A stretch of 63,575 bases of DNA, the filler included, from Platydemus manokwari (Eukaryota): assembly GCA_037951405.1 (NCBI GenBank). It is 6 parts of 6 records of this genome, joined end to end, with 100 filler letters (N's around TTAATTAATTAA, not from the genome) between each part and the next. Parts side by side here need not be neighbours in the genome. Positions count along the whole stretch, not along the records: positions 29,252 to 44,963 come from JBBMOY011250318.1; 5 more parts are not named here. The stretch is one strand, 5' to 3'. Made by a program: the position numbers and the translations under genes. Each line of letters opens with the position of its first letter. Within the stretch, counting starts at the first letter, position 1. Below, piece after piece: positions 3,839 to 54,321 of the stretch. The notes beneath the pieces were generated by a model, which saw nothing but the letters and a program-made list of their open reading frames with translations, was not told the origin of the DNA and searched no databases.

Positions 3839-4344
3839 TGTTAGGATCCGAACTCGCATTGAGTCACATAACGGCAAATATCATGTTACGCCCACAAACA
3901 TAATCACACAAATAAAAATCCTAAAAATAAACTAGCAATTAAAAATAGTAATTTATAATTACTATAATAGAACAGAAACTAAAAATCGAATTTAATAATT
4001 GCAAATAAAAGAACAGAAAACAAAAATAGGATTTTAAAATTCCAGAAATAGAAAAATCGTAATTGGTTAAAATCATAACAAAAATAGTATATAAAAATCT
4101 AGAGATTAATTGCCATTAAATTAATCGTTATATAAAATATTTTTATTTTAAATAGATGTTATAATAAATCATTGCATAATAATATGTATTACTCGCCCTT
4201 ATTTGAGACAGAAGATTATAATATAAGGTTTCATAGAGTGTACCTTAAGGGGTTGATCAGACCTCATAGAGACTGATCAAGTCGGCATTGATCTACAATA
4301 AAATATAAAATACAGAGACTGGTTAATCAAGCAGCCTCAAAACA
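3839..4344 (+). mobile_element. Probable solo LTR / LTR fragment (Gypsy-type)
   Basis: Begins TGTTAGGATCCG and ends ...CCTCAAAACA. The 5' part recurs inverted at ~26560-26783. The 3' part (ccttaaggggttgatcagacctcatagagactgatcaagtc) matches the end of the Gypsy LTR at 33935-34042. No clear TSD. Confidence 0.55.
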
Positions 4345-9927: not shown

Positions 9928-10027
9928 NNNNNNNNNNNNNNNNNNNNNNNNNNNNNNNNNNNNNNNNNNNNTTAATTAATTAANNNNNNNNNNNNNNNNN
10001 NNNNNNNNNNNNNNNNNNNNNNNNNNN
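9928..10027. other. Artificial contig spacer (44N-TTAATTAATTAA-44N)
   Basis: Six-frame stop linker flanked by Ns; identical to four other spacers. Confidence 0.97.
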
Positions 10028-10800: not shown

Positions 10801-11812
10801 CAATAATAAAAGTTCCTATTAAACTACTGAATAGGGGTTTTGATTGTTATATTAATGCTGCATTTCAGTCGATACTTATTACTTATGATGATGAATTTGA
10901 TAAAATATTCCAATCCAGGTTGATGAGAAAAAGACCTGCTATTAAATTACTTTATGAATGTTTAACGGCTGCCAAAGATCATAAATGTTTTTCATTGTCT
11001 GATTATCTCACATCGAATGTCGATATAACATGTACATAAAAAAATGATGAATTCAATCGTTTATTGTTTATACAATTATTGATAGATTTCTCTCAACGTT
11101 TGCAATTAAGCAGACAAGAGGATTGTCATGAGTTTATGTCTGGTTTTTTGGATCGATTATTTAATGAAGTAGAGGAGTGTAAGATATTTATTAAGGGAAT
11201 AAATCCGATCAAAAATGCATATGAGATTTCAATAAAAAATATGGTTGTTTGTGATTCTTGTCAAGCAATTAGTGATGGACTGCCACCAGTCAATACTAGA
11301 ATGTTTCTCATTGTAGAGCCAAAACGGGATCTCGAAGAAAGCATTGAAACATCTTTGAATGGTCGAATGGAGACGTACCATTGTGGGAATTGTAAAAAAA
11401 CTCATTCAGCTCACTGTATATCTCATTTTGTTGGATTGTCGGCTTATTTGTTTATTTGTGTGAAAAGGTAAAACAAAAAACTATAAAAACGGGTTCTCTA
11501 ATAATATTGTTTTTATCCAGATTTTACTATTTGAATAATAAAATCCATAGTAAAAATCGTCTAAAAATGAAGGTCTATGAATATCTAAATGTGCCATTTG
11601 GTTCGGATGCTACTTGTTATTATATTTATGAATTAATATCTTTGGTCATGCATGTCGGTGGGGTCAACAATGGGCATTATTTTAATTATACCAAAATCAA
11701 TAATAAATGGTTTATGATTGACGATACTTCTGTTTCGAGGATCAGTTGGAATAAAATAACGAGTTATGGCTTTAATAGCAACTATATTCACACGTTTAGA
11801 CGCATAAAATAA
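10801..11812 (+). CDS. Ubiquitin-specific protease (peptidase C19), catalytic domain only; 5' end unresolved
   Basis: Cys box LLNRGFDCYINAAFQ, QEDCHEF box, CDSC/CGNC finger zinc ligands, His box YELISLVMHVGGVNNGHY...WFMIDD. In-frame GT-AG introns 11032-11085 and 11468-11520. The nearest upstream ATG exon (~10719-10745) is out of phase. Confidence 0.85.
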
Positions 11813-19286: not shown

Positions 19287-19386
19287 NNNNNNNNNNNNNN
19301 NNNNNNNNNNNNNNNNNNNNNNNNNNNNNNTTAATTAATTAANNNNNNNNNNNNNNNNNNNNNNNNNNNNNNNNNNNNNNNNNNNN
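19287..19386. other. Artificial contig spacer
   Basis: 44N-TTAATTAATTAA-44N. Confidence 0.97.
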
Positions 19387-29151: not shown

Positions 29152-29251
29152 NNNNNNNNNNNNNNNNNNNNNNNNNNNNNNNNNNNNNNNNNNNNTTAAT
29201 TAATTAANNNNNNNNNNNNNNNNNNNNNNNNNNNNNNNNNNNNNNNNNNNN
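29152..29251. other. Artificial contig spacer
   Basis: 44N-TTAATTAATTAA-44N. Confidence 0.97.
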
Positions 29252-29256
29252 CAGAC

Positions 29257-30880
29257 ATGTCTAAACCATTTATAGTAATGACAGATGCGAGTAATGAGGC
29301 ATTAGGAGCAGTATTAGGACAACAAGAGGAAGATCAACCAGATCATGTCATTGCGTATGCAAGTAGATCATTAAAAGGAGCAGAAAAGAATTACTCCACT
29401 ATAGAGAAAGAGTGTTTAGCTATAATTTTTGCGTTAAAAGAATTTCGACAATACATTTATGGTACAGAAATAATACTCAAAACTGATCATAAGCCGTTAG
29501 AAAGTCTAATGAAGCATAGAGATACCAGTAGTAGATTAATTAAATGGGAATTAAAATTACAAAACCTTAACATCAAAATAATATATAGGACAGGAAAATC
29601 CAATGCAAACGCTGACAAAATGTCTAGGATACCAGAAAAATCTGAAAAGAAATTATTAGAAATCAATGCCGTAAACACATTTGTAAGAGCAGTTAATACC
29701 AAAACTGATATACAAGAGATAGAGAAAGAACAAAAAAAGGAGAGTGAAATAATAAAAATAAGATGGTTAATAGAAAGAGATAAAGACAGCGAAAGAGTAA
29801 AAGGATATAAGTTAAGTAATAAAAGTATATTGACTTATCGTGAAGAAAATTTAGTCGTTGTACCTAAAAATCTAAGGGAGCCACTATTGCTTTCATACAA
29901 TGACGGAGCATTAGGAGGTCATTTGTCTAAAAGAAAAACATATAGCAAGTTAAGATGCAAATATTACTGGAACGATATGAAAAATGATGTAAATAAATGG
30001 TGTAAACAATGTTCACTATGCGCAACTAGGAAAAATACAGAGAAAGTAAGAAAAGTACCATTAAAACCATTACCACCAGTGGAAAGACCCATGGAAATGT
30101 GTGCGATGGACGTGATGGGACCATTGCCAGTAACTGAAAAGGAAACAAGTACATCATAGTATTCTGTGATTACTTCACCAGAATGTCACTCGCATTTCCT
30201 AGCTAAATTACTAGTTGAAAAAATAATATTCCAATATGGAGCACCCAGCAAATTATTAACTGATAGAGGCAAAGACTTCTTAAGTAATGTCATAAAGAAG
30301 GTTACTGAATTATTTAAAATCAAGAAAATCAATACATCTCCATATAGACCGAAAACAGACGGATTAGTAGAGCGTTATAATCAAACACTCCAAAATATGT
30401 TGTCAAATTTTGTCAATAAAAAACAAACTAATTGGGATGAACATATAAAACCATGTACGTTCGCTTATAACACAGCAATAAATGAGACAACGGGATATTC
30501 ACCGTTTTATCTAATGTATATGAGAGAGACATATTTGCCCATAGATCTGGAATTTTTGCCACAAACATCACAATTAATGGATGAGAAAGAATATGTTAAC
30601 ATAATGAAAGAAAGATTAGGAGAGACGTACCAACATGCACAGTTAAATTTAAAGTTCAAGCAAGAGTAATATAAGGACTATCATGATAAGAAAGCGTATA
30701 ATCATGGATTTAAGATAGAAGATAAAGTCAGAATTTATGCACCCGAAGTTAAAAAAGGAATATCACTAAAATTACAAAGACCATATAAGGGACCTTATGA
30801 AGTAGTTAAAGTGACTGACACAAATTTGTTCATCAAAAAGAAAAAGAATGAAGATCCATCAGTATTAACACGTAAGAAGA
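29257..30880 (+). pseudogene. pol: Gypsy pol (RNase H-integrase) with frameshift and stop
   Basis: ORFs 29257-30159 and 30166-30669, plus read-through past the stop to KLQRPYKGPYEVV. Confidence 0.9.
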
Positions 30881-31630
30881 AATCAAGATAAGCAAGAAAG
30901 TAAAATAAAATCAATAAGTAGGATAGGAAAAATTATAATAATTTCTCTAATAATTACTTTGATGATAAGACCAGTTAAATGTTTTAATGGAACTGATAAG
31001 TTCAATAGTTCTGTTTTAAACAATGAAACCACATCACCAGTTAAAATCATTACAACAACAATTAGTGCTATGAAAGAAATCATGGAACCAACATGCAAAA
31101 TAAGAAAAGAATTCATCTTGCCATATTTCATAACAATAGAAAACAATAGGGCAATAATAAATTGTCAGCAGCAGTGTAATTGGAGGAAACTTAGATATTT
31201 AAAAGAAGTATGGGTAAAAAATGAAACAAATAAGATAGAATTTGTAGTAAAATGTCATCAAGGAAGTGGTGAGAAATGTAAATAAGAAAGATTAGAAGAA
31301 ATAACAATAATAGGAAAATGGGAAGAGTCAATAGGTGAAGAATGGAGAGTTAATTTCTTGATATTGATACAGTTAACATGTACCGCAATAACAACAATTG
31401 AAGTCATAGGTCATACAAGAGCAATAATAAAAGAAATGAAACCGAGTACAAATGAATGGAAATTCAAAGCCCCAAAAGCTAAGAAGGAAATAATAGGAAT
31501 TTCATGGAGTCCATACACCAATAAGATAACATACCATTTAATAGCATTAACCGGAATAGTAGCTAAAATTGTAACAAATGAAGGAAAAGAAATTAAGCTA
31601 AAAAACACCTTACCATCCAAGACAATCAAA
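30869..31630 (+). pseudogene. Env-like / secreted-type accessory segment following integrase
   Basis: HVRR...SRIGKIIIISLIITLMIRPVKC (hydrophobic signal/TM-like), N-glycosylation sequons NGT, NSS, NET, NET and several Cys. ORFs 30959 and 31358 are in one frame, split by a single TAA. Confidence 0.45.
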
Positions 31631-31639
31631 CTAACAAGA

Positions 31640-32190
31640 TTAGGAATACATGATATATCATTCATACAATGTTATGCGAATCCTCATACATCAAAATGCA
31701 ATTGTGAAAAAAGTTTTAAATACTGTACAACTAATAGAGATAGGTTGATAATTAATATCCCGGATTGGAAAACATCAAAAATCATCAGTGATGAAAAAGA
31801 AATAGGAAATAGGAAGTAGAAAGAGATAATGCATTATAGGCAGAGAGTGAGTGAATGGAATAAGAGAAACACGTATTGCGAGGATCAATTGATTCTGAAG
31901 AAATAAGCCAGGAGATCATCAAACTTGTTCACGGAAAAATCATAGTTGGATATGATTTAAAAAGAAAGCTAAAAGCTTTATCCATCTTCATGGAAGAAAT
32001 AATGGGAGTTCGTGATATTAAAGGAGCCCAGACAGTCAAGGAGATCATGAGAGAAAACAGTGTACAGCCAAGTGACGATATCAAAAAGATCTACGAGGGG
32101 ATAATTGGTAGAAAAATGCCACAGTGTGGAAATTTAGATGACGAGATATAGGCAACAGTATCAATATACAAGTTCATAAGTGAAAAATGC
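31640..32190 (+). pseudogene. DEDDh 3'-5' exonuclease-like domain (REX4/ISG20/PAN2 type) within the Gypsy polyprotein
   Basis: Frameshift-corrected HYRQRV(N)GIRET.LRGSIDSEEISQEIIKLVHGKIIVGYDLKRKLKAL...VRDI...IKKIYEGIIGRKMPQ...ATVSIYK parallels the REX4 pattern DYRT.VSGI....L......VQ.EV..LL.G.ILVGH.L.ND...L...RDT...SL..L...LG..Q...AAM.LY. Confidence 0.7.
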
Positions 32191-32347
32191 ATTGATCACA
32201 CCGAGAACAATGAGGACAGAAGATATAAGATCAAGATTCAAAAAGAAGAAGATAATATGATGACGGCAGAAAAAGAATTCCCAACAGAAAAATCAAATCA
32301 GATCAAGTGAAGGAGTATGGGAACTGAAATCATCTAGAGAATGTCAG

Positions 32348-32878
32348 TTGAGCAATAAACGAAACAAATTCTGGAGTAAAACCATGAAAGAATTCTGTCA
32401 AATGAGAGCCAACAGAATTGAGAAGGGCGAGATAATAAATCATTGTAACGATTCGAAAATTCAGGATAAGACTGATGACATGTTAATGGATGAAAATGAA
32501 AATGAGATAGAATGCAGTGAGTATGAATTAACATCGGAGGACGAGCGCAATTTGGAACAGTTATGGCTGGAAGCAATGATTGAGGAGGAAATAAACCGAG
32601 AAAGAAATCAGCAGGAATTCGAGGAAATCTGGCAGGATGCTGAGGAGTTCATCAGAGAAGAAAAGGAAAAAGAAATTGTCAGAAATTCTGTCCTGAATCC
32701 TTTTGCAAAGGAATTTGTCCCGACACGGTTACAGGAAAATGAGGAAAAATCAGTCAATGAAAAATCTATGAGGAAGAGAAGAGTACCAGATAATTTAGAT
32801 GATCAATCTTCAGAAGCAAAGAAAAGCAAGCATGAGGACATGCTTTTTCTGACCCCCCCAGTAGTGTTGGGGTTCTGA
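32348..32878 (+). CDS. Acidic C-terminal accessory ORF with PAM2 motif (PAIP2-like)
   Basis: Glu-rich LEQLWLEAMIEEE...EFEEIWQDAEEF followed by SVLNPFAKEFVP (32687-32722), a canonical PAM2 (LNPxAxEFVP). The stop codon lies inside the LTR. Confidence 0.65.
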   Translation: MSNKRNKFWSKTMKEFCQMRANRIEKGEIINHCNDSKIQDKTDDMLMDENENEIECSEYELTSEDERNLEQLWLEAMIEEEINRERNQQEFEEIWQDAEEFIREEKEKEIVRNSVLNPFAKEFVPTRLQENEEKSVNEKSMRKRRVPDNLDDQSSEAKKSKHEDMLFLTPPVVLGF

Positions 32879-34042
32879 CACTTTAACAATCTAAAAACTG
32901 ATAATACTGTTTAAATGTATAAATGTATTGAAAAAAGTGTATCAATGTATATGTAAATTTTTATAATTAATTTTTATAAATTTGGTGAATTGAAATATGT
33001 GACATTTATTGATGCCTCAAGTCAATAAATAATTCAGCACGCAATAATAGTGACAGTTTGTACATCGCATTGTAGCGTTAATTTAATGACAAATTCTGGA
33101 ATAAATATTATTATGTAACATTATATTATATATCTTTATCGGTAAAAATAAAGGAAATAAAATATATTTAAAATATATATTAAATGATTTGAGGACAAGC
33201 AGGAGACATAGGGGAATTTTAAGTGAATTTTATAAATAATTAATAGGGAATATTTTTCATAAAATCAACACCCAATATTTTAATCAAAGGGAATTAAAGC
33301 GCCGACATTCAAACAGTATAAACGGAGACCCGAACATCATAATTCGCCCATTTTAAGAAACCACTAGTTTGTGTAAGAAGATTTACGAAGCCCACAATTT
33401 GATTGTAAGAAGACAAATTGCCATAAGGAGAAGCCACAAGTTTATGCCATTCGAATATTTTCTGTTTTGTCATCAAATCAAAGTGAGTTCGATCGTATAT
33501 AAAATCATCATCACTATTATATATAGTATTTCGTTTAACATCCTACTATCGAGTTTTATCTCAAACATCTTGCGGTAAGGTTCTGTTTCTAGAGTTGAAA
33601 CAAGCAACCGTGTACTTTCCTGAATTTGTAAGGTCATTCGTCTAGGATATTGTATTAAGTGTATATTGTAGTTTTAAACATTGAATTGTATTGTTGTATA
33701 ATTGTAATCATTTGTATCATCAATAAACGTTATTGTAAACGGAAAATTGTGTTGTTGATCGAATAGGATATAGGATAGGATTGTTGAATAATTTGAGACT
33801 GATTGAGACTGATAATTGTAAAATAGTTTTAATAAAGTTAATAATTGGATCTTTGCTGCCTATCATACTATCTCCATATAGTATTGATAGTGAGGTGAAA
33901 AGAGAAGACAATAAATTAGGGTTTAATTCGTATACCTTAAGGGGTTGGTCAGAGCTCACGGAGACTGATCAAGTCAGCACTGATCCACAAACTAATTGAA
34001 TATAGAGACTGATAAAAAATTAAATCCAGCAACCCCAAAACG
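32865..34042 (+). repeat. 3' LTR of the Gypsy element (~1.18 kb)
   Basis: Starts TGTTGGGGTTCTG and ends CAGCAACCCCAAAAC(G), an imperfect terminal inverted repeat. TATAAA near 33317. Confidence 0.7.
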
Positions 34043-34954
34043 AATAGGTTAAACGTCCATGTTATTAGCTAAATCTTTGAAGGCATCAGTAAGTCTTCCA
34101 ATGAAACTGTTAGGAAAAAATAGATTGAGTGGTACTCTATTCAGGTAGAAAAAATTATAGTGTTCCAGAAGACGAAAAAAATTCCACTGACAATCAGCCC
34201 ATATAAATTATAGACAGAAAAAAATGGCAAAATAGAGTCGGTAAGATATGCAACCACATCTAAAAAGTATGGATTATCAAACAAGGAATACGATAAAAAG
34301 ATTTCAAAAAAGGTCACTAAAAATAGTAGCAGGAGCTCATTGTGAAAAAAGGTTACGAGGAAAAGAAAAAGACTTAGGGAATGAAGAACTGGAGTCTTGA
34401 CCCCGCTGAAGTTATAACCAATGTTCAACCATTGATGACCTTCGAATTCCAAATCCAATCAGTTTCAGCCCAAAGTATTTTAGTAAAACACTGCACACAT
34501 TAAAATTTTTATTTTAAGATCTAATATTTTTCCCCAATATTAAAATAATTTTGTAATTATTCACCATGTAATAAAACATGAACGTTGGGGAAAAATCAAA
34601 ATTAACATACTTTTAGTATAAATAAACCCATACCAATACAACACGTCAGAATTTAAATGTTAAAAATAGTATCCAGTTGTATACCTTATAAATGCTAGTT
34701 AAGTTCAAGTATAACATTGACATATAGTCAGATTAACAAAGTTAAACGCAAATTTTAATTTTGTAATAATTTTTATGATGTGGCCCGTAAGATAAATTTT
34801 CCATGAACCTGTCCATGGAATTATAGTAGAAACAGCTGTATTTATTTAAAAATTAAACGAAGATATAAAATTCTAATCTTATATATTTTATTAAATGATA
34901 TTTTGAGCGTTCACTGACTAGATTTGGTATTTTTTGACTTTAAATTATATTTTC

Positions 34955-37063
34955 TCAAGTCTTTATTGAAGTATATTGCTTTTTGTTCATTAAGCAATTT
35001 CTACAAACCGGAAGCGAACAATATACACACGAATGATAGTATTCCTTGAAGCATGATAGACACAAATAATCAAAACAGTTGCTACAAAAGTAAGTCTCAG
35101 ACATTTTACGAATAACTGTCTCACAATTTATGCACTTATTTTCAAGTTTCACTTTTGAACTGTCAAAATTCCCGTGGTGTATCTGATGCTCTAAATCTTG
35201 AATGATAGATTTCCTAATTTCTCTATTATTTAAATTCATTAAACTCATAGATTTATTATCATGTTCACTTAATTTTGGTTTATTCGTTTCTGAAATCATC
35301 GATTTTGATTTAAGTGCATTAATAGATTTCTTAGTTTTTTTCACCAGACCACTGAAAAATCCAAATTTGAAGAAAGAGAATCTCTTTTTATCTGGTCCTT
35401 TAGGACTTGCAACTTTTTCAGAGTTTTCTTCGTTATGTTTTTTCTTGGCAGTAGGTCTGGAAATATTGGAATTGTCAAAATTGTCAGCACTCTCAATATT
35501 TTCTATTTCTGTTTTGTTTTCATAATCATAAATGGAAGGTGATTGAACATTAATTTGTACCTCGGGATAATAAACATATTTCCAAAATACAAATTTAGAT
35601 GCTACGATTGGATTATTAATTACGGGAATAATATTATTCTTATTATAATTTTGGTTAAGATAATCGAGAATACTATGCCTGATATAACCCCATACTGAAT
35701 GACAATTTTGATGAACTTTCAAGGCCAATCTTTCTTTTTCACTACTGCCTATGAAAGTACCAAACGAACAGTCTTGAGACCATCGATGTAGATGCCTTAG
35801 CATCAGTTCATTGAACTGAAATTGATCAGGATAAATAATCATCAACTGGTAGACACAGTCTAGGAATTGAATAAATATTGGAGAAGTATCGGATTTCTTA
35901 GCATTACTCAATTGATTACAACGCTTTTTGAAGTTATGTCCAAATGCTAGAAAATCTTTTTCAATAATATCTTCAAATCCTTCAACAGTTCTGTAATAAG
36001 GATCAATTATAATTTGAGCTAAGGCACACAATTGAGATGTTCTATCCCAACCATCACTACAATGAACAACAACATTTTCTCCTCTTTTTAATTTTTTGAC
36101 GATGTAAAGTGACGATTTTAATAACAGTTTTATATGACGGGACCATTCACTGTTTTCGGCAGAAAAATTATTTCTTTCCTCCAAGTTTTCGTACTTTTTC
36201 AGTAATTTCTTCAAACTGGATCTCATAACATGAACGTTCTCAATTTGCAGAAATTCATAATCAATATTTTCATAGAATCTTGTGATTTCATAACCCATTC
36301 CTATTGCTCTATTAGTTAATGCATTCAACTTTGGTCTTGCATCTAATACATGGAGGACATTTGTATTCTCTTTCAAAGCAACGTCTTTAATTCTTTTCAG
36401 CAATGCAATATCATCATTACACTTTTTCCCAAATCCTGTAAATGGTTGGCTGCATCGACATAGAGCTGAACCTTTGGCAGCATAGTAATAAGTAAGTGCG
36501 GGAAATCTGTTTCGACTGCGATAATTTGCAGATCCTTGCACACGAGATTTGGAAATACCTTGAGGGATGAAAATCACTGATGGATAACTGTCCGAGATTT
36601 GATAATTTTCATTGATATCTGAATATTGCCACTGATCATTTGGTAAACCCATTCTCTGGAAACTTTGTTCCAGTCTATTTTTTGGATGAATCCAACCAGT
36701 AGCTTGATCACGATAATCGTAGTTCGATAAAAGGCACGGGAGCTTATTGTATTGGTCAATATGTTCCGTGAGATATGTCAAAATTTGTTTCAGGCTTTCA
36801 CAGATCTTTATTATTTCGATTTTAAATTCAAATCGACGAAAATCTTTCAGCTTAACATGGAAGATATTTTTATTATCATTGATTGAAGTAAATTTAACGG
36901 ATTTAATTATATTTATGTTAATTCTAATAACTTTACTTAATTCTTCAGAAAAGAAACTCAAATAGTTTATAGAAACATGTAATCTACCGGGAATCACGAA
37001 TAGAGGGGAATTCTTCACTATCAGGTCAACATTTTCGATTTTAGAGAGTGCTATGTATTCCAT
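34955..37063 (-). CDS. Myotubularin-related phosphoinositide 3-phosphatase (MTMR6/7/8-like), intronless, 702 aa, C-terminal FYVE-like Cys cluster
   Basis: PH-GRAM-like N-terminus, YRSRNRFPALTY, LCRCSQP, DARPKLNA, active-site VHCSDGWDRT, SPIFIQFLDCVYQL, and a C-terminal series of CxxC motifs. Confidence 0.95.
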   Translation of the reverse strand: MEYIALSKIENVDLIVKNSPLFVIPGRLHVSINYLSFFSEELSKVIRININIIKSVKFTSINDNKNIFHVKLKDFRRFEFKIEIIKICESLKQILTYLTEHIDQYNKLPCLLSNYDYRDQATGWIHPKNRLEQSFQRMGLPNDQWQYSDINENYQISDSYPSVIFIPQGISKSRVQGSANYRSRNRFPALTYYYAAKGSALCRCSQPFTGFGKKCNDDIALLKRIKDVALKENTNVLHVLDARPKLNALTNRAIGMGYEITRFYENIDYEFLQIENVHVMRSSLKKLLKKYENLEERNNFSAENSEWSRHIKLLLKSSLYIVKKLKRGENVVVHCSDGWDRTSQLCALAQIIIDPYYRTVEGFEDIIEKDFLAFGHNFKKRCNQLSNAKKSDTSPIFIQFLDCVYQLMIIYPDQFQFNELMLRHLHRWSQDCSFGTFIGSSEKERLALKVHQNCHSVWGYIRHSILDYLNQNYNKNNIIPVINNPIVASKFVFWKYVYYPEVQINVQSPSIYDYENKTEIENIESADNFDNSNISRPTAKKKHNEENSEKVASPKGPDKKRFSFFKFGFFSGLVKKTKKSINALKSKSMISETNKPKLSEHDNKSMSLMNLNNREIRKSIIQDLEHQIHHGNFDSSKVKLENKCINCETVIRKMSETYFCSNCFDYLCLSCFKEYYHSCVYCSLPVCRNCLMNKKQYTSIKT

Positions 37064-44963: not shown

Positions 44964-45063
44964 NNNNNNNNNNNNNNNNNNNNNNNNNNNNNNNNNNNNN
45001 NNNNNNNTTAATTAATTAANNNNNNNNNNNNNNNNNNNNNNNNNNNNNNNNNNNNNNNNNNNN
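44964..45063. other. Artificial contig spacer
   Basis: 44N-TTAATTAATTAA-44N. Confidence 0.97.
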
Positions 45064-54221: not shown

Positions 54222-54321
54222 NNNNNNNNNNNNNNNNNNNNNNNNNNNNNNNNNNNNNNNNNNNNTTAATTAATTAANNNNNNNNNNNNNNNNNNNNNNN
54301 NNNNNNNNNNNNNNNNNNNNN
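54222..54321. other. Artificial contig spacer
   Basis: 44N-TTAATTAATTAA-44N. Confidence 0.97.

Follow-up and report, generated by a model that had tools for sequence, protein, structure and literature searches.

A decayed Ty3/gypsy retrotransposon copy from Platydemus manokwari carries, past its integrase, part of an ISG20-like nuclease domain followed by a PAM2 motif. Both modules are real in the sequence; a conserved function for them is putative, and the protein itself could not be made from this copy. The window, meaning the whole stretch of DNA analysed (63,575 nucleotides, filler included), is a chain of contigs joined by identical N-linker spacers (9928-10027, 19287-19386, 29152-29251, 44964-45063 and 54222-54321), so neighbouring contigs in it are not truly adjacent. 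The region of interest sits in the contig at 29252-44963, which opens inside the pol gene. Its features are as follows.

29254-30870, plus strand: pol remnant with RNase H and integrase (HHCC, core, GPY-type C-terminus), from Pfam, translation and tree
30869-31411, plus strand: post-integrase extension with one stop at 31283, from hydropathy and sequons
30911-30967, plus strand: signal-peptide-like segment, hydropathy 2.01
30986, 31004, 31022 and 31220, plus strand: four N-glycosylation sequons, all between the two hydrophobic segments
31355-31411, plus strand: likely membrane span, hydropathy 1.84 (modest)
31412-31850, plus strand: open region with a stop at 31817, where the nuclease's N-terminal half may lie in diverged form
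31851-32200, plus strand: C-terminal two thirds of an ISG20/REX4-type DEDDh domain with a stop at 32149, from PDB, Atlas, HMMER and hhalign
32264-32875, plus strand: tail ORF, unbroken over 204 codons and of low complexity, from stop counts
32480-32680, plus strand: Glu-rich stretch in the tail ORF, 34% Glu
32687-32722, plus strand: PAM2 motif SVLNPFAKEFVP, from Pfam, the 1jgn peptide and shuffles
32865-33910, plus strand: putative 3' LTR (TGT...ACA), from sequence, with stops in all frames and contigs of three runs over it

The initial annotation had placed the region in a gypsy element, and this is borne out. It lies 3' of an RNase H (Pfam RT_RNaseH, 3e-40) and an integrase (Integrase_H2C2, 4e-18), in the order and with the HHCC, core and GPY-type end expected of Ty3/gypsy. 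The pol remnant is interrupted by two stops and one frame change, and its 5' part is lost at the N spacer 29152-29251. It is 48% identical to residues 2720-3263 of P0134, a single 3,735-aa ORF made up of gag, a fusion protein of the mononegavirus type, protease, RT and RNase H as well as integrase. In a pol tree of 31 rows, from which 90 of the 121 fetched pol proteins were excluded by length or rank, the window and its ten best pol relatives (46-53% identity) form one clade with support 99/98, P0134 included. Through P0134, the pol is placed with elements whose single ORF has env between gag and pol. The element is therefore likely to be of the Burro-like gag-env-pol kind; its own 5' half is missing, and the likeness to Burro is by published description. 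One member of this eukaryotic retroelement clade, P0004, is filed under a Turicibacter MAG, likely a contamination of that bin.

At the 3' end, the putative LTR start is preceded by a run of seven C (32853-32867), not by a polypurine tract; contigs from all three runs extend to this place. No 5' LTR was found in the contig and no second LTR copy in the window. A 94-base dispersed repeat (33915-34008 and 4223-4316, 77% alike) adjoins the putative LTR end. Elsewhere in the window, an intronless 702-aa myotubularin closest to MTMR6/8 lies on the minus strand at 34958-37063, and a ubiquitin hydrolase (UCH), split across two overlapping frames, lies on the plus strand at 11040-11809.

The reading frame past integrase had been described as broken by just a few stops and frameshifts, and counts of stops per frame agree with this as far as 32875. 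The three frames contain 2, 53 and 38 stops at 30869-31852, 1, 11 and 13 at 31864-32304, and 0, 16 and 21 at 32264-32875, compared with 32, 29 and 26 in the comparison region 32900-33900. One frame at a time is thus nearly free of stops up to 32875, which indicates that the 3' region was once coding. Within 31640-32878, the breaks are the stops at 31817 and 32149 and changes of frame at about 31850, at about 31875 and somewhere in 32264-32304.

The signal, ectodomain and membrane segment in the extension, like the Burro-like affinity, was absent from the initial annotation. There is no sequon after the second hydrophobic segment as far as 31852. The predicted topology is that of a membrane protein whose nuclease-like part and PAM2 would face the cytosol. 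The extension (30869-31411) has no significant sequence match to the post-integrase extensions of relatives. A strong membrane span is present in the extension of seven of eight relatives, and P0002 and P0010 have additional captured domains after integrase; the post-integrase slot therefore appears to accept accessory modules. The captured domains are a weak second aspartic-protease-like domain in P0002 (residues 602-692) and, in P0010, a second aspartic-protease-like domain and ankyrin repeats (residues 822-909 and 1154-1368). The pol extensions of P0002, P0003, P0005, P0006, P0008, P0009 and P0010 end as membrane proteins, and in five of these seven the C-terminus is Thr-x-Val/Leu, which we take to be a class I PDZ-binding pattern.

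The nuclease part might also have a start of its own near 31435, given that nucleases homologous to it exist as stand-alone ORFs. GC at third positions amounts to 0.38-0.42 for the nuclease part and tail versus 0.23-0.26 in pol and the extension, a difference that suggests later capture or another origin.

Homology to an ISG20/REX4-type fold is solid solely for 31851-32200. A PDB sequence search with the piece from 31891 returned two entries at E<10, ISG20 and ISG20L2. The best ESM Atlas cluster was RNase_T (0.93; family carried by 16% of the cluster members, top family hits agreeing 10/10). Among 1.84 billion proteins, HMMER gave five matches (E 4e-6 to 5e-4), all aligning to the 31851-32200 part, and three of them pass the RNase_T cut-off. 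Alignment by hhalign to a profile of seven family homologs gave 98.1% and E 9e-14, a value that is not independent because these homologs were found from the window query itself. The family profile matches ISG20L2 (E 7e-18) and ISG20 (1e-12). A model of the homolog P0133, confident in the nuclease part and low elsewhere, had ISG20 as its best fold match (TM 0.82), with Pan2 fifth in rank. The homologs are not of the DEDDy subtype; their third motif contains His, and they match RNase_T/ISG20.

A complete DEDDh domain across 31640-32200, as originally read, is not supported. The similarity of the family homologs to the window begins at 31851, and 31640-31850 has no significant match to the family N-terminal half in any frame. 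An anchored alignment of that half was equalled by 26 of 400 shuffles and is not significant. For 31286-31816, single-sequence AlphaFold gave a pLDDT of 33 and the ESM Atlas returned nothing. The suggested Pfam RNase_T check produced no match on the window pieces. The domain claim stands for its C-terminal two thirds and lacks support for the rest.

None of the nuclease homologs was placed in an LTR element. A word search with the nuclease half passed 0 of 76 candidates, and the family profile, in what was a weak search, found no nuclease family member among 4,672 proteins of 992-2830 aa. Viral contigs yielded nothing for the integrase, the nuclease family, the PAM2 pattern or P0134. A metagenome scan gave seven loci: L001 is a family member, a stand-alone ORF without a pol match; L003 is a bacterial DnaQ-like gene, and the other five are partial weak matches. 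The longer nuclease homologs are likewise stand-alone ORFs of 379-575 aa. L001:485-2209 and P0123-P0127 make up an unnamed family of stand-alone ISG20-like ORFs. Its members share their N-terminal region, carry Glu in the second motif and have acidic tails; Pfam does not detect P0133 or P0135. The end of an ORF lying upstream of the L001 gene (L001:1-116, HEDSMFITP) resembles the end of the window ORF (32831-32860, HEDMLFLTP). C-run/G-run hairpins occur at both places, with no significant DNA match between them.

The nuclease-like domain of the window copy is likely inactive, judging from its residues. GYDLKRK lies at 31948-31968 with Lys in place of the second acid (31966), as the initial annotation had noted. 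At the third motif (about 32125-32130) there is no His; an acidic residue may remain, the register being uncertain. No first motif D-x-E was recognised on comparison with the family N-terminal half by profile or alignment. The proposal that DISF (31652) replaces DCEM did not hold up: it lacks profile support and its spacing is off, as it lies about 80 codons before the DSEE anchor versus 57 in the homolog P0124, some 23 codons too far. Two alternatives, NCE at 31700 and RDRLII at 31733, were not significant either. The scaffold motifs GxDL and GxRD are kept while the three catalytic motifs are lost or unrecognisable.

In six of the eight homologs, DxE and H..D are kept and the second site is acidic (Glu), so the losses in the window copy may be decay. 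P0122, a fragment, keeps Asp at the second site. Conversely, P0121, the best match and a separate unbroken ORF, resembles the window in that a basic residue replaces the second acid and the His is absent. This resemblance agrees with the earlier suggestion of a pseudonuclease in the window copy, where the second acid and His are missing. A dead nuclease subfamily comprising the window and P0121 is plausible and goes no further than that because the tree joins them without support, as two long branches; we do not treat the two as a clade.

The PAM2 motif SVLNPFAKEFVP of the initial annotation is supported. Pfam PAM2 (PF07145) scores 19.4 bits (E 8e-4), just below the cut-off of 20. In composition shuffles, the strict PAM2 pattern arose in 0 of 200,000 and the loose pattern in 32 of 200,000. 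The sole PDB match of the motif is the PAIP2 peptide 1jgn (E 0.72). The motif has an LNP.A.EF.P core with Leu and Phe seven residues apart, the anchors given for PAM2 in PMC10132805. We conclude that the motif is well beyond chance and nearest to that of PAIP2; binding to the MLLE domain is predicted from this likeness. In PMC9753129, eRF3, PAN3, TOB and PAIP1/2 are described as binding MLLE via PAM2.

In the window copy, PAM2 is in a different frame from the nuclease part. It is absent from all eight nuclease homologs and all twelve pol relatives scanned, several of which are fragments, and Pfam finds no PAM2 in P0134. The Glu/Trp-rich stretch that had been reported before it (32480-32680) is rich in Glu; Trp makes up just 3% (2 of 67 residues). 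The acidic part of the tail has no PDB match, and nuclease homologs that have no PAM2 can have acidic tails as well.

Evidence from read contigs points to a multi-copy family, since 751 of the 2,602 contig pieces of run X1 that align over 29252-34300 are less than 90% alike. Smaller contig sets over the same interval come from the runs of two other organisms. One X1 contig is identical to 32064-32374, which shows that the DNA itself contains the stop at 32149 and the frame change preceding the tail; X1 may be the window's own source. In run X3 (organism C), one contig has a related piece over 31933-32168, with about 400 of its 672 bases beyond 32168 unaligned at the 80% threshold. The PAM2 bin has the lowest summed X1 depth among the first 29 of 30 bins, a contig depth that cannot rank the parts, and no variants fall in the PAM2 motif among the variants listed.

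We tentatively propose, as the reading we lean towards without holding it probable, that an accessory pseudonuclease-PAM2 part would dock PABP on the element RNA and thereby shield or localise that RNA. The frame past integrase would encode first the predicted segment of signal, ectodomain and membrane span and, after it, a part predicted to be cytosolic, in which an ISG20-type DEDDh domain, likely inactive, is combined with an acidic tail and PAM2. The PAM2 would bind the MLLE domain of host PABP. The dead domain might grip RNA 3' ends without cutting them, while PAM2 might recruit PABP and compete with PAM2-bearing deadenylase adaptors. As an outcome, the element's own poly(A) RNA would be stabilised or kept near the membrane. 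A bolder form, which we consider speculative and the least probable of the readings given here, is that in an env-bearing lineage of giant retrotransposons a membrane-anchored protein with an ISG20-like pseudonuclease and PAM2 tail tethers PABP-coated element RNA at the particle-assembly membrane. It would be the first PABP-recruiting module in an LTR element.

It is also conceivable, and in our judgement rather unlikely, that template switching in one subfamily brought in a truncated DEDDh piece and a PAM2-bearing fragment of host mRNA, without use to the element. Such an origin would fit a domain recognisable just in its C-terminal two thirds, the higher third-position GC of the nuclease part and tail than of pol and the extension, and the lack of PAM2 in all 20 relatives scanned. 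Variation of ORF3 is moreover described as neutral in bdelloid LTR elements (PMC5408684). However, the modules keep in step with a single long frame, which runs out at the edge of the putative LTR, and the nuclease part is covered by related contigs in the run of a second organism.

The losses at the catalytic sites could instead be post-insertion decay, with intact elements encoding a working 3'-5' exonuclease. Its PAM2 would target PABP-coated RNA, as in a one-chain PAN2-PAN3 analogue, or the enzyme would trim element RNA, cDNA or small RNAs. The catalytic set kept in six of eight homologs, the heavy breakage of the window copy elsewhere and the catalytic residues retained by the bdelloid DEDDy ORF3s (PMC5408684) are consistent with this. 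We regard it as improbable; three motifs are lost or unrecognisable and yet the scaffold GxDL and GxRD is kept, and similar losses are seen in P0121, whose ORF is unbroken. If the tail were the main functional part and the nuclease secondary, the Glu-rich stretch directly before PAM2 might strip PABP off host poly(A) tails and dampen host translation. PAIP2, the sole PDB match of the motif, is reported to displace PABP using PAM1 plus PAM2 (PMC9753129), which lends this repressor some appeal. Nevertheless, the acidic part has no PDB match, homologs without PAM2 have acidic tails too, and the element's own poly(A) RNA would suffer as well, which makes this quite improbable.

For most accessory ORFs of LTR elements no role is known, and a PAM2 points to a host partner for one of them. 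If the arrangement proves conserved, PABP mimicry would reach from RNA viruses to retrotransposons, and the element would have made an RNA-holding component out of a protein related to the antiviral nuclease ISG20. If it is not conserved, it is a curiosity of a single decayed subfamily. It also draws attention to a family of ISG20-like ORFs in metagenome contigs (P0121-P0127, P0133) that has no name. No LTR element carrying PAM2 or a domain of the ISG20 type turned up in our literature search; such ORFs could be described in the original Burro genome paper, its supplements or Repbase, all outside that search. The claim of novelty thus holds for the pairing as far as the literature searched goes and has to be reduced for its components, as DEDD nucleases in LTR elements (PMC5408684) and viral PAM2 mimicry (PMC10132805) were already known.

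Among known proteins, ISG20, ISG20L2 and REX4 are the best sequence and fold matches of the family. The window piece differs from them in having no detectable first motif, second acid or His and in its PAM2 tail. The PAN2-PAN3 deadenylase is made up of two chains, has an active nuclease and includes additional domains. The analogy to it, drawn in the initial annotation, captures the pairing of a DEDDh nuclease with PAM2 in one functional unit. It is otherwise loose, because ISG20/ISG20L2 are the nearest matches of the family, with Pan2 in fifth place in the fold search of a homolog; the window would encode one chain, likely inactive and closer to ISG20.

Burro and GYPSM1 are giant planarian gypsy elements with a gag-env-pol layout (PMC6431247), a layout also reported from nematodes and bryozoans (PMC13524379). 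The window's clade resembles them in holding P0134, with its one long ORF and a mononegavirus-like fusion protein between gag and pol, and in the capture of accessory domains, such as the ankyrin repeats of the relative P0010. In contrast, no DEDD nuclease or PAM2 is listed for Burro in the available portion of PMC6431247, a comparison by description only. PAM2-type motifs that bind PABP are known from the henipavirus P/V/C, HCoV-229E N and Berne virus N proteins (PMC10132805). These and PAIP2 share with the window the short motif, its Leu and Phe anchors and a low-complexity setting. They belong, however, to host proteins or to RNA viruses that do not reverse-transcribe, and have no DEDDh domain; binding was measured for the viral motifs (PMC10132805), whereas that of the window motif is predicted.

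The closest precedent within LTR elements is the DEDDy exonuclease ORF3 of the bdelloid rotifer elements Juno and Vesta (PMC5408684; also cited in PMC6338049). It too is a DnaQ-like 3'-5' exonuclease downstream of pol, and its DEED signature has Glu for one catalytic Asp, as do six homologs here. It differs in being RNase D-like and encoded by a separate ORF3 with intact catalytic residues, and the available text of PMC5408684 mentions no membrane segment or PAM2. The domain in the window is instead of the ISG20/REX4 DEDDh type, likely dead, and apparently in the pol frame.
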